Shown piece after piece: positions 2,507-10,931 of a stretch of 11,242 nt of DNA (the first letter of the stretch is position 1; the number at the start of each line of letters is the position of its first letter). The stretch is from Candidatus Aenigmatarchaeota archaeon. Its GTDB lineage: Archaea; Aenigmatarchaeota; Aenigmatarchaeia; QMZP01. The stretch lies in NCBI GenBank assembly GCA_039091855.1, contig JAWCLA010000024.1, forward strand, positions 1 to 11,242. The letters run 5' to 3'. The notes beneath the pieces are model-generated. The model saw nothing but the letters and a program-made list of their open reading frames with translations. It was not told the DNA's origin and did no database searches. The position numbers and the translations under genes are program-made.

Positions 2507-2710
2507 TTACGCGATTTCCTGCCTGGTAGCAACGGCAACAGAAATCCAGCACAATCCTGCTATAAGGAAAAGCACAAAGGCTATTATTAGCGCGAGGGCA
2601 TACTGGAATTCAGAAACCCCTATATTAAGTTCCAGGTTCTGGACTATCCAGGTGCCTCCCAGTATAAAAAGTCCTCCCAATATCCATATTAAAACAAGCT
2701 TGGCACTCAT
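2507..2710 (-). CDS. Small hypothetical membrane protein with 2 TM helices (67 aa from ATG 2710; alternative GTG 2719)
   Basis: Two hydrophobic stretches (LVLIWILGGLFILGGTWIV; YALALIIAFVLFLIAGLCWISVAVA). It fills the rpoD-rps15 gap and is co-oriented with both. Confidence 0.75.
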   Translation of the reverse strand: MSAKLVLIWILGGLFILGGTWIVQNLELNIGVSEFQYALALIIAFVLFLIAGLCWISVAVATRQEIA

Positions 2711-2741
2711 ACTCTTCACTTTAAGTTTTCACTTTCTTGAC

Positions 2742-7451: not shown

Positions 7452-7584
7452 ATATAATCACTAACTCCTAAAAACAGGCTCTCAAAAAACCTTTTGAGAA
7501 GCCTCTCTACTGGTTGCAAAAGAAAGCAGCTAAAACCCCGCTTTACACAGCCAGTAACTCAGCTTACCCTAATCATTTGGTAAG
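7452..7584 (-). promoter_or_regulatory. Structured non-coding leader of rps17 (three consecutive stem-loops, then a U-tract and SD-like motifs)
   Basis: Inverted repeats at 7563-7584, 7508-7556 and 7476-7504, then GTTTTT and AGGAG/GTGAT before the ATG. Function is inferred. Confidence 0.55.
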
Positions 7585-7589
7585 ATGGC

Positions 7590-7600
7590 TTTTTAAATAT
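7590..7600 (-). promoter_or_regulatory. Putative TATA box of an internal promoter for the rps17-rps8 block
   Basis: ATATTTAAAAA preceded by purine-rich ACAAGGTAAT (BRE-like), in the only large gap of the operon. Confidence 0.55.
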
Positions 7601-7623
7601 ATTACCTTGTTCCAAATCAGTAA

Positions 7624-7899
7624 CTACCATTTCTTGAACTTTTTCTTTACCCTGTCTTCTGGTCTGGAAACAAGAAGGCTTCCGTCAACCCTTACCCATT
7701 TTCCGTTAACAAGGAAAGAAAAAACGCAAATATCCTTAGGGACAGATTTTTCTCCGCTTTTTGTTTCAATGACAAGCATATTCCTGCTCTCTCCAACAAC
7801 CTTTCCCTCTATTCCAACAAGATGCGAATTTTTTGAGTTTGCTACCTTTGCTAACAGGCCTATAAGCTCGTGCCTTACAATCTCTTCGGGAGTTGCCAT
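7624..7899 (-). CDS. rnp1: Ribonuclease P protein component 1 (Rpp29/POP4)
   Basis: HELIGL, GIEGKVVGESRNML, VPKD and RPEDR motifs; canonical position between SUI1 and rps17. ATG 7899 with upstream GAGGG is preferred over TTG 7923. Confidence 0.95.
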   Translation of the reverse strand: MATPEEIVRHELIGLLAKVANSKNSHLVGIEGKVVGESRNMLVIETKSGEKSVPKDICVFSFLVNGKWVRVDGSLLVSRPEDRVKKKFKKW

Positions 7900-7936
7900 A
7901 ATATAAAAACCCTCTTCAACCAAATACTGCAGCCTT

Positions 7937-8242
7937 CTATGAAACCTCTATCTTTTCCTCAGGAAAGCCGAGCTTCACAAGTATTGCCTTCACCTTTTCT
8001 GTGTGGTTTCCCTGCAACTCTATCACGCCTTCCTTTATGGTTCCTCCGCAGGCAAGCCTTGTCTTCAACTCCTTAAGAACGTTCTTTATGTCAACGTCCT
8101 TGCTTATGCCCTCAATCACTGTTGTTATCTTTCCGTACCTTTTTTTTATCCCAGAAACTCTTATCTTCTCGCTCTCCTTTGCTATTGTCTCGCAAACACA
8201 TAGTTCCTTCGGCAGGCCGCAGTTAGGACAGACTTCGCTCAT
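7937..8242 (-). CDS. Translation initiation factor SUI1/aIF1
   Basis: CPNCGLPKELCVCE, RYGKITTVIEG, LACGGT and IELQGNH motifs; ATGA overlap with rpl29. Confidence 0.97.
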   Translation of the reverse strand: MSEVCPNCGLPKELCVCETIAKESEKIRVSGIKKRYGKITTVIEGISKDVDIKNVLKELKTRLACGGTIKEGVIELQGNHTEKVKAILVKLGFPEEKIEVS

Positions 8243-8472
8243 TCTTTCTTTTTTACCTCCTTTGTTTCATTCCTTATACTTTTCTCTTTCTTTATAGTAA
8301 GCCCTCTTGCAATGGTTTTTCTCAACTGCCTTATTCTTCCCGGAGAAGAAACAGTAGCACCTATCTTTATGCTTGCTTTTTGCTTGGCAAGCTCAAGCCT
8401 GAGTTCAGCAATTTTTCTGTCAAGCTCTCTTGACTCCATTTTCCTCATTTCTTTTTTTCTTATGATTGCCAT
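8239..8472 (-). CDS. rpl29: 50S ribosomal protein L29 (uL29)
   Basis: ELRLEL...SPGRIRQLRKTIAR motif; follows rps3. Confidence 0.95.
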   Translation of the reverse strand: MAIIRKKEMRKMESRELDRKIAELRLELAKQKASIKIGATVSSPGRIRQLRKTIARGLTIKKEKSIRNETKEVKKKE

Positions 8473-8485
8473 AATGTGGTTTCCT

Positions 8486-9244
8486 TTAATTTTTCGATTC
8501 AGCCTTTTTAACCTTTTTCTTCTTTTGTTCGTCCTTTTCTGTTATTTCAGTTTTAATGGGTTTTTCTTTATGAACAGCCTCTTCATTTTTCTCAGCCTCT
8601 TTTTCAAGCTCTTCCAAAATCTCTTCACCTTTTTGCTCAATTTCGGTTTTTTCAGGTCTTGTTGTCTTGAGCTCACCATCAATATCCATAAAATACTTCA
8701 TTATCTTTACCTTCACGCCTATCTTTCCTGGTTTTGTGTTTGCCTCTTCAAAACCATAGTCAACAAGCTCTTTTGATGGCTGTCCGCAATGTTTAAGGTA
8801 ACCTTCTGTAAACTTTGATGTCATAGCCTTTCCTGTTCCAAACTTTCCTGAAATTATTATTTCAGCACCAACAGCGCCCGCGTCCATTATCCTCTTTATC
8901 ATAACATTTCCTATCTTCTTGTAATTGAATCCCTTTTCCAGAGAGGATGCAATATGTTTCGCTACCAGTTTGGCATCTAAGTCTGGATTCCTTATCATTT
9001 TAACATCAAGTTGTGGGTTTTCCAACCCAAACTTCTGCTTTATAGCCTCTGTCATTTCATTTATTGTCCTACCACTTCTTCCTATTATCCTTCCAGGTTT
9101 GTTTGTGTATATTATTATCTTTATCCCGAGAGGCGTCCTTTGAAGCTCTATCTTTGAATAGTCTCCAGAAGGAAAGCTTTCCCTTATGAATTTCTCTATT
9201 TCCATCTCCTTTATTGCATGACCGATGAAGTATCTCTTAAGCAT
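8486..9244 (-). CDS. rps3: 30S ribosomal protein S3 (uS3) with long charged C-terminal tail
   Basis: RTPLG, KH loop PGRIIGRSG, GAEIIISGK and GKIGVKVKIM motifs. Confidence 0.98.
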   Translation of the reverse strand: MLKRYFIGHAIKEMEIEKFIRESFPSGDYSKIELQRTPLGIKIIIYTNKPGRIIGRSGRTINEMTEAIKQKFGLENPQLDVKMIRNPDLDAKLVAKHIASSLEKGFNYKKIGNVMIKRIMDAGAVGAEIIISGKFGTGKAMTSKFTEGYLKHCGQPSKELVDYGFEEANTKPGKIGVKVKIMKYFMDIDGELKTTRPEKTEIEQKGEEILEELEKEAEKNEEAVHKEKPIKTEITEKDEQKKKKVKKAESKN

Positions 9245-9473
9245 ATCTAATCCCTACTGGCCATATTAACTCCCCGCTTTTTTCCTTATCCCTTATTTCA
9301 AGCCTTTTCATAACAGGGCTTCTTAAAAACCTTTCAGGTAATTTTTCAGAATCAACATCCTCAATAATAAAGATGCTCTCCCCGTCCGTATCGTAATCTT
9401 TCTTAAGGACATTCGAAAGGTATTTCGCTATCCTTAGGCTCCCCCTTCCACAAATATAAATATCCACTTTCAT
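9237..9473 (-). CDS. Hypothetical 78-aa protein inserted between rpl22 and rps3
   Basis: Its ATG is 1 nt after the rpl22 TGA (GGAGAGATGATATG), and its TAA overlaps the rps3 start (ATGCTTAA). It fills the whole 230-nt gap. No family recognised. Confidence 0.8.
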   Translation of the reverse strand: MKVDIYICGRGSLRIAKYLSNVLKKDYDTDGESIFIIEDVDSEKLPERFLRSPVMKRLEIRDKEKSGELIWPVGIRYA

Positions 9474-9474
9474 A

Positions 9475-9858
9475 TCATCTCTCCATCAAAACTATCTGTA
9501 TGTTTGCCATCTTCCTTTTTGTTCCCCTCATTTTCAGCCTTCTTGGCCTCATGAATGTGAAGCCCTTGTGTGCAGAGGCATGAACATAAAGCCTTGACGT
9601 GTCAAGACCTTTGTTCTCGGCGTTTGACTCTCCACTTTTAAGCAGGGAAAGTATCTCTTTTGAAATGTTGGTGTAATATTTTCCATCGATGCTGCGCCTT
9701 CCTGAAATCATATCCTCAAGAAGTTTTTTTGCCTTTTCCAGATTCATACCCGTTATCCTTCTGCATACTATTGCAGAGTTTTTTTCAGAAAGCCTGAGGC
9801 TTCTGCCATAGACCCTCACTGACTTCTTTGGGTTAGGATTGAAAGCATACCTTTCCAT
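9475..9858 (-). CDS. rpl22: 50S ribosomal protein L22 (uL22), short divergent form
   Basis: Position after rps19; GMNLEKAKKLLED, ESNAENKGLD and NIQIVL motifs; SD AGGTGG. Confidence 0.93.
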   Translation of the reverse strand: MERYAFNPNPKKSVRVYGRSLRLSEKNSAIVCRRITGMNLEKAKKLLEDMISGRRSIDGKYYTNISKEILSLLKSGESNAENKGLDTSRLYVHASAHKGFTFMRPRRLKMRGTKRKMANIQIVLMER

Positions 9859-9867
9859 AATCCACCT

Positions 9868-10248
9868 TTACTTAAGCGGTACGAACTTGCTGGACCTTGT
9901 TGCACCAAACCCAGGCGCTGAATGCTTGACAGCCTTTCTTGTGAGAGCGAACTCACCAAGCCTGTGCCCGAGCATCTCTGGCTTTATTTCTACAGGAACA
10001 TACTCCTTTCCGTTGTGAACACCTATCTTTACACCAAGCATTTGGGGAACTATCACCATTTCCCTGCATCTTGTCCTGTGAAACTTGCCAGGATTTTTCA
10101 TAATTTTTTCGAGCAAAATCCTTTCCTTCCTTGTGAAACCTCTTTTTAAGGCTCTCCTTTCCCTTGCAGGTATAAGCCTGCTGAATTCCTCTATGCTCAT
10201 ACTCTTTATCTCTTCAAGGGATTTCCCCCTTAGTTCAAATTTTGCCAT
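9868..10248 (-). CDS. rps19: 30S ribosomal protein S19 (uS19)
   Basis: PARERRAL, VHNGKEY, EMLGHRLGEFALTRK and GATRSSKFVPLK motifs. Confidence 0.98.
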   Translation of the reverse strand: MAKFELRGKSLEEIKSMSIEEFSRLIPARERRALKRGFTRKERILLEKIMKNPGKFHRTRCREMVIVPQMLGVKIGVHNGKEYVPVEIKPEMLGHRLGEFALTRKAVKHSAPGFGATRSSKFVPLK

Positions 10249-10262
10249 TTCCTATACACCCA

Positions 10263-10931
10263 TTATTTCTTTCTGCCCATCCTCCTTGGAGATATTGAGC
10301 CGACCTTCCTTCCAGGAGGAGCGTTTCTTGAAACGCTCTTGGGTTTTCCAAGTCCTGTGTATCCTCCCCCAAAGGGATGGTCTACAGCATTCATTGAAGT
10401 TCCGGATGTCCTTGGATAAAGCTTACCTCTTGCGTGCATTGCTATCCATTTTTTTCCTGCCTTTACCCAAGGCTTCTCATTTCTTCCGTCACCAGCAGGA
10501 ACACCGATTGTTGCCAAGCACTGAGGATTGAGCTTAATCTTCTTCTTTGATGGAAGCATTATTATACACTCCTTTTCTGTTTTTGATTCCACTATTGCAA
10601 ATGATCCTGGAGATCTGCAAAGCTTGGGTCCTGAATTGGGATATGTTTCGACGCAGCATATCTGCTGTCCTTCGCTAAGGCTTGAAAGTGGGACTATGAC
10701 TTTATCTATATTGTCGCCGACTTTCATACCCTCTATTGCAACAATGTAGCCCTTTGTCTTATCCTCATATTCAATCTCTGCAAGCGGTGCATCCCTAAGA
10801 GGATCGTTTACTATGTCAATCACAACCCCGTTCTGTTTTTTGTATCCTAACTTTGGCTTGAATTTCCTTTCAGGAACCCTGTAAGTATGAGAGCCTTTCC
10901 CCCTTCTCTGTGGTATTATCCTCTTACCCAT
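10263..10931 (-). CDS. rpl2: 50S ribosomal protein L2 (uL2), compact form (222 aa)
   Basis: MGKRIIPQRRGKG, MNAVDHPFGGG and APPGRKVG motifs. ATG 10931 has SD GAGGGA. Confidence 0.97.
   Translation of the reverse strand: MGKRIIPQRRGKGSHTYRVPERKFKPKLGYKKQNGVVIDIVNDPLRDAPLAEIEYEDKTKGYIVAIEGMKVGDNIDKVIVPLSSLSEGQQICCVETYPNSGPKLCRSPGSFAIVESKTEKECIIMLPSKKKIKLNPQCLATIGVPAGDGRNEKPWVKAGKKWIAMHARGKLYPRTSGTSMNAVDHPFGGGYTGLGKPKSVSRNAPPGRKVGSISPRRMGRKK

Follow-up and report, generated by a model that had tools for sequence, protein, structure and literature searches.

A small orphan gene at the uL22-uS3 junction of an aenigmatarchaeal ribosomal operon, with a predicted ferredoxin-like product

Between the ribosomal protein genes uL22 and uS3 of a Candidatus Aenigmatarchaeota archaeon, a pair generally regarded as among the most stable neighbours in prokaryotic genomes, lies a reading frame of 78 codons (ORF78) that is best explained as an orphan gene that entered this junction a single time, is coupled to its neighbours at both ends, and encodes a predicted ferredoxin-like accessory protein. 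We put the probability of this reading, taken as a whole, at about 45%.

The window, meaning the whole stretch of 11,242 nucleotides that was analysed, belongs to a genome of 0.69 Mb with an estimated completeness of 84%, and the sequencing runs containing this DNA are labelled as hot springs metagenome. A typical archaeal ribosomal-protein operon runs along its minus strand, in the order L23, L2, S19, uL22, ORF78, uS3, L29, SUI1/aIF1, Rpp29, S17, L14 and L24, then S4e, L5, S14, S8, an L7Ae-family protein, a KH protein, an RNA polymerase subunit D-like protein and S15, with those genes that were not scanned against families being named from their translations (Table 1). Two members of this operon, aIF1/SUI1 and Rpp29, resemble ORF78 in being small, non-ribosomal and tightly packed between their neighbours. 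However, both are Pfam families with known roles, and both are widespread across archaea as non-ribosomal genes embedded in this operon, whereas ORF78 has no such family and occurs in 2/91 genomes of its order. Elsewhere, the spacer between Rpp29 and S17, the widest gap in the operon, yielded neither an ORF of at least 30 aa nor an Rfam match, and an internal promoter may lie in it. A short ORF between the RNA polymerase subunit D-like gene and S15 is hydrophobic by eye, and probably encodes a small membrane protein.

Table 1. Coordinates of ORF78, its junctions and other features discussed in the text. Positions refer to the window unless a locus is named.
Feature	Position	Strand	Description
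ORF78	9237..9473	-	codes for 78 aa; new small family with 10 members in alignment A4
uL22	9475-9858	-	127 aa; internally shortened form typical of the order
uS3	8486-9244	-	252 aa; KH domain and S3 C-terminal domain, K/E-rich tail
uL22 stop codon and spacer base	9474..9477	-	TGA 9477-9475 and single spacer base 9474, then the ORF78 ATG 9473-9471
SD-like GGAGAG	9479..9484	-	-11 to -6 of the ORF78 ATG
Overlap ATGCTTAA	9237..9244	-	8 nt; uS3 ATG 9244-9242 and ORF78 TAA 9239-9237
G-rich AGGGAT	9250..9255	-	-11 to -6 of the uS3 start, in the ORF78 tail
aIF1/SUI1	7937-8242		
Rpp29	7624-7923		
Rpp29-S17 spacer	7452-7623		172 nt
ORF between the RNA polymerase subunit D-like gene and S15	2507-2719	-	70 aa
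Conserved uL22-uS3 insert protein of family f4	L029:1881-2234	+	115-118 aa
S19-uL22 insert ORF of G004	L002:903-1112	+	69 aa

The ORF list of the window holds one minus-strand ORF at this position, beginning with ATG, and no other ORF of at least 50 aa overlaps it on either strand. The architecture given in the preliminary description, with a start 1 nt past the uL22 (rpl22) stop, an SD-like GGAGAG and an 8-nt overlap with uS3 (rps3), was confirmed in the sequence in each of these particulars, and the near-neutral charge that it reported also held (K+R = 15, D+E = 14, pI 7.81). The uL22 stop codon and the spacer base that follows it can be read as a termination-reinitiation junction, and the 1-nt gap, the 8-nt overlap and the GGAGAG at -11 to -6 are together the attributes of a coupled operon gene, the coupling itself being a prediction. 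The GGAGAG falls within the last uL22 codons (Met-Glu-Arg). Because it is encoded by the conserved C-terminus of uL22, it did not evolve for ORF78, and therefore the same bases precede uS3 in relatives that lack the gene. SD-like cores are in any case commonplace in this operon, a simple pattern count finding G-rich sequence at -14 to -4 for 14/21 window genes. On the other side of the gene, each of the three copies known as DNA has a G-rich motif about 6-11 nt ahead of the uS3 start, the AGGGAT of the window having its counterparts in GGAGG in G004 and GGGGG in L072, and this motif lies within the poorly conserved, lower-confidence tail of ORF78.

A search for homologues, as envisaged in the preliminary description, recovered about ten small metagenomic proteins, the best at E 1.3e-13. 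Searching 1.84 billion representatives with phmmer returned nine proteins at E <=0.001, the query included, with two of the others at E <=1e-10. All but one of the eight non-query matches are small (78-93 aa, E 1.3e-13 to 8e-4), and two further small members were added by profile search, bringing the family to ten. The remaining match, P0005, a protein of 1635 aa built of repeats of about 140 residues, was set aside as a probably spurious match, its E of 1.8e-5 arising from five weak repeat matches to ORF78 residues 29-66. The family is tiny, its approximately ten sequences being metagenomic and mostly on contigs under 2.2 kb. Six columns are invariant in 10/10 members (D4, Y6, A16, Y27, D28 and R61), and seven further residues are nearly invariant among the ten small proteins. 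One word-index protein search returned the query alone, and another, for longer, fused forms of ORF78, returned none, which for this type of search is weak evidence; scanning metagenomes with alignment A2 turned up no relative, and a genome-collection scan with P0007 gave only the record of G004 itself.

The three DNA copies (the window, G004 and L072) also allow selection on the protein to be judged. Their non-synonymous distance in ORF78 is 0.52-0.67, while the synonymous sites of the flanking uS3 and uL22 of the same genomes are saturated in 4/6 comparisons. Hence the ratio of non-synonymous to synonymous change in ORF78 is well below 1, and therefore its protein is under purifying selection. 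The dN/dS comparison suggested in the preliminary description thus came out in the expected direction but yields no numerical value, the synonymous sites being saturated. Nevertheless, ORF78 diverges 3-6 times faster than both of its neighbours, for which the corresponding non-synonymous distances are 0.18-0.20 (uL22) and 0.08-0.12 (uS3). Judged by its homologues, ORF78 is a genuine protein-coding gene, beyond a chance ORF. The window stretch 8200-10300 drew 0 reads in two metatranscriptome runs from a study of related DNA, in which the presence of the organism is not shown. A full-text search of the literature, including passages of PMC6393860, found nothing on a gene at the uL22-uS3 junction.

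The position of the gene is retained wherever it can be read. In 3/3 members with readable DNA the gene is flanked by uL22 and uS3 and overlaps the latter by the same 8 nt, a positive outcome of the check on homologues at this junction that the preliminary description proposed: in G004, of the same genus, an 80-aa homologue starts 2 nt past the uL22 stop, and in L072, a metagenome contig of 1483 nt, the ATG of an 83-aa homologue overlaps that stop. In 8/10 family members the protein ends in [Y/H/D]-A, the residues that result when an embedded ATG CTT AA of a uS3 start (Met-Leu-Lys/Met-Leu-Asn) is read one frame over. These endings are indirect evidence that the members known without genomic DNA also adjoin uS3.

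The family is nonetheless very restricted. Six-frame profile searches placed it in 2/91 genomes of the order and 2/371 of the class, one weak off-family match being set aside in each (G030 and G320, respectively), and the phylum search covered the same 371 genomes as that of the class. Within the genus, the window genome (G000) and G004 carry ORF78, making 2/5 species, while in G001, G002 and G003 the gene is missing and uL22 and uS3 stand 7-10 nt apart or overlap. A FastTree phylogeny of uL22 and 200 residues of uS3 from 20 genomes gives the genus the topology (G000,(G004,(G001,(G002,G003)))), in which the clade without the gene is supported at 0.957. The most parsimonious course on this tree is a single gain of ORF78 and a single clean loss. 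The gene is dispensable and any role it has non-essential, because 89/91 order genomes, and three sister species, live without it.

The structure of the product was approached by prediction. AlphaFold2 produced a confident model from an alignment that is shallow (8 rows, from a family of about 10 sequences), with pLDDT 86.1 and pTM 0.75, all five models scoring 82-86. Strands at residues 2-7, 27-29, 35-41 and 58-62 and helices at 12-23 and 47-57 give the order beta-alpha-beta-beta-alpha-beta, which the preliminary description had read from the sequence by eye and which the model reproduces nearly element for element; its assignment to a ferredoxin-like fold found only generic matches (Z <=5.3). 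Foldseek returned nothing at E <=0.001 from the PDB or BFVD. An exhaustive structural aligner gave four chains at Z >=5, the best at 5.3, below which ferredoxin-like domains form a flat list, with ACT-type domains, Cas2, CutA and ribosome chains, with 59-66 of the 78 residues superposed at 2.5-3.4 Å; by the aligner's own calibration, a Z under 8 may reflect merely a common arrangement. The same beta-alpha-beta-beta-alpha-beta order is common to the ORF78 model and to uS10/NusE, ACT, Cas2, CutA and the phenol hydroxylase regulatory protein. Ribosome rows such as 5mmm_j and 6xa1_SU, which from their chain naming we take to be uS10, score Z 4.5-5.2, level with the ACT, Cas2 and CutA rows; in comparison with uS10/NusE-type chains, the best Z of ORF78 is 5.3, with no gap to unrelated rows. 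In the model, the invariant polar residues D4, Y6, Y27, D28 and R61 sit on strands, and the alternation of hydrophobic and polar residues suggests that they line the sheet's open face, which in the ferredoxin-like fold usually serves for binding.

Sequence comparison assigned the protein to no existing family. ORF78 has no Pfam or NCBIfam match (Pfam at E <=1), and when all 8 members were searched against Pfam at E <=10 only three one-member matches appeared, none of them to ACT or RRM_1, and a comparison by eye gave no RNP1/RNP2 motifs of the RRM. A sequence-profile search of the PDB gave a best E of 0.27. The best ESM Atlas features, unnamed clusters at 0.91 and glycosyltransferase-2 fragments at 0.89, do not exceed the level reached by shuffled proteins. 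Two candidate relationships within ribosomal and translation proteins were tried and rejected: a duplication of the uS3 N-terminus, an idea formed by eye (hhalign probability 0.1%, blastp E 7.4), and a SUI1 paralogue, from a topology match by eye (hhalign probability 0.4% against a SUI1 profile of 39 sequences). Sequence profiles also gave no link to uS10/NusE (PF00338), to which there is no Pfam match, and for which hhalign against the uS10 of this genome, present elsewhere in it, gave 0.04%.

A gene in this position might be a lineage-specific ribosomal protein, as the preliminary description proposed, or a chaperone or assembly factor devoted to one of its neighbours; it could, for instance, shield nascent uS3, which it would meet co-translationally through being made just ahead of it. 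The coupling at both ends within a ribosomal operon, the position kept in every readable copy, the compact fold with conserved polar residues that the model suggests are exposed, and the several small ferredoxin-like ribosome chains among the top structural rows are all in keeping with such a role, which we nevertheless consider unlikely. The pI of ORF78 stands apart from the 9.26-10.89 of the 11 ribosomal proteins tabulated, and ranges across the family from 4.9 to 9.5; the gene is missing from 3/5 species of the genus as well as from nearly all of the order, and the uS3 and uL22 of the genus are 72-84% identical to those of the window even where it is missing; it evolves several times faster than either; and it has no sequence relation to uS10, uS3 or SUI1. 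Basic charge and presence in close relatives, as would mark a structural ribosomal protein, are both lacking (pI 7.81, 2/5 of the genus, 2/91 of the order), and a core ribosomal protein is therefore unlikely given the charge, the loss within the genus and the fast divergence. Co-folding of ORF78 with uS3 residues 1-195 gave no support, the tool returning no verdict. The preliminary description had further taken the adjacent uL22 to be truncated, and ORF78 possibly to compensate for it. Instead, the 127-aa uL22 is internally shortened: it aligns to a solved archaeal uL22 at both ends (query 3-61 with chain 5-63, query 58-126 with chain 77-149), with about 15-20 middle residues missing, and its scores fall short of the two NCBIfam cut-offs (80.3 against 137 bits, and 74.4 against 79.85 bits). 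Compensation is not supported by these comparisons, because the short form is found across the order, in 87/91 genomes, and almost always without ORF78, which only two of the 91 possess.

Two further explanations can be considered. ORF78 could be the decayed N-terminal piece of an archaeal Cmk-like P-loop NMP kinase, which has lost the Walker A lysine and whose present function is new, although we regard this origin as very unlikely. It would account for the only other profile match in the class, a 179-aa kinase-like protein of G320 (E 9e-4 per genome), with which hhalign pairs ORF78 at 66% over 35 columns spanning strand 1, the loop, helix 1 and strand 2; for the alignment of the same region by an independent profile of 21 kinases (24 columns, E 0.0049); for the pattern hIxIxG...AKyLs..Lg..Y.s.G, held in register by ORF78 and the Cmk-like N-terminus; and for IFIIED, which by eye is like a Walker B strand. 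Language-model features, and one profile match, likewise suggest Rossmann-like or P-loop-like N-terminal fragments, at odds with the ferredoxin-like model. However, the independent 21-sequence profile gives a probability of 7% only, and the G320 protein is the best match from 371 genomes, among which about 0.3 such matches are expected by chance. Moreover, the Walker A motif GxxxxGK[ST] is absent, with a 3-residue gap at GKT where ORF78 reads G-R-G-S, and the protein, of only 78 residues and without the Walker A lysine, has an AlphaFold model that aligns with antiparallel ferredoxin-like folds and not with P-loop folds. Hardly probable at all is that ORF78 is either a functionless frame bridging inserted DNA from uL22 to uS3, or a mobile element or selfish gene such as an antitoxin, even though varied small inserts are frequent at both uL22-uS3 and S19-uL22 (10/55 each, counting those of at least 150 nt in the first 58 loci). 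The conserved protein sequence, with its invariant residues, the confident predicted fold, and non-synonymous change that is far below saturated synonymous change make it unlikely that the frame does no more than bridge. The stretch shows no RNA-structure signal (fold z-score -0.41) and has no second copy in the genome, the insert is not bounded by an inverted repeat, and the GC content of 0.38 is like that of the neighbouring genes. The mobile antitoxin that the preliminary description held out as a possible refutation did not materialise: the best PHROGs match has E 0.018 and the best PADLOC match E 0.031, each family appearing in 1/8 members and neither being convincing, no relatives were matched in viral contigs, and the flanking genes are uL22 and uS3. 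ORF78 accordingly bears no sign of a mobile element that could be found, and appears not to be mobile. The insert-less uL22-uS3 joint was not found in the DNA contigs of X1 and X2.

The junction that ORF78 occupies carries inserts recurrently in this order. Both uL22 and uS3 were located together in 84 order genomes, and the gap between them is at most 26 nt in 70 of these, a spacer of 61-67 nt in three, and an insert of 176-816 nt in the other 11. These 11 inserts, all of at least 150 nt, belong to at least five families between which no significant similarity was seen. Besides ORF78 and its relative (G000 and G004), they comprise a conserved protein of 115-118 aa in 4/5 genomes of family f4 (G046, G052, G043 and G049; the copy in Table 1 has counterparts in L032, L034 and L040, with 57-84% mutual identity), behind which G049 has an additional ORF of 151 aa; single ORFs of 60, 74 and 91 aa in G015, G031 and G019, respectively; and two weakly similar ORFs, one of 74 aa in G038 and one of 73 aa in G076. 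No Pfam family was found among those of the other insert ORFs that were scanned, with the G046 copy standing for the f4 protein and G076 left out. Kinship of ORF78 with these other junction ORFs was considered and is not supported, the hmmsearch and hhalign matches being weak and only partly in register (G031 at E 0.0078, G038 at E 0.028 and G019 at E 0.054), with probabilities of at most 5%.

Across the first 58 loci, inserts of at least 150 nt were present between S19 and uL22 in 10/55, between uL22 and uS3 in 10/55, between L2 and S19 in 4/52, and between uS3 and L29 in 0/47, counts in which the genomes are kin rather than independent events. Both flanks of uL22 are thus insertion-prone, because half of the genomes carrying a uL22-uS3 insert also have one between S19 and uL22. 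G004 provides an example of the latter insert (Table 1). A few loci depart from this organisation in other ways. The uL22 of G003 (L065, G003:C14) matches over residues 1-65 only, and Met-Glu-Arg-stop follows in another frame before uS3, which is either a frameshift or an assembly error. In G032 (L036) and G018 (L059), uS3 is absent within about 1.5 kb downstream of uL22, and the ribosomal operon seems to be broken; in G032, uL22 is followed by an opposite-strand ORF of 243 aa, by eye like a helix-turn-helix regulator.

It is conceivable, although distinctly unlikely, that the flanks of uL22 act as a nursery of new small proteins, in which captured or newly born small genes would at once be expressed at the levels of ribosomal proteins, and that ORF78 has matured there into a folded, conserved partner of the ribosome or of nascent uS3. 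Eukaryotes have dedicated chaperones for ribosomal proteins, Yar1 being that of uS3, and ORF78 would on this account be a dispensable counterpart confined to one lineage.

The reading that we prefer, of a singly acquired and doubly coupled orphan gene for a ferredoxin-like accessory protein, would have the following course. A single entry of ORF78 into the uL22-uS3 junction, in the forebear of a genus-level clade of archaea with small genomes, would have been followed by a clean loss in one subclade. Ribosomes ending uL22 would encounter the ORF78 start 1 nt further on, behind the SD-like GGAGAG, while the 8-nt overlap of the ORF78 stop with the uS3 start, together with the G-rich motif in the last codons of the gene, would keep uS3 coupled to uL22. 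Given this coupled layout, the amount of ORF78 protein made is expected to be close to that of the flanking ribosomal proteins. Its product is predicted to be a compact, near-neutral, ferredoxin-like domain, and the face of its sheet may handle a ribosomal protein or dock on the ribosome. We tentatively suggest that ORF78 is a dispensable accessory binding module linked to translation, and not a structural, rRNA-binding ribosomal protein, the link to translation being drawn from the position of the gene alone. About equally likely is that its job is unrelated, and that it borrows the operon merely for strong expression.

In this order the pairing of uL22 with uS3 is broken by small, coupled genes in 11/84 related small-genome archaea, and ORF78 is one of them that bears the marks of a working protein. 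For annotation, ORF78 is to be described as a hypothetical protein belonging to a new, small family, rather than dismissed as a spurious ORF. If any of the junction genes act on the ribosome, they would offer cheap entry to the lineage-specific translation biology of archaea that cannot so far be cultured. If none do, they would represent a natural example of new small genes gaining strong expression by means of a conserved operon.
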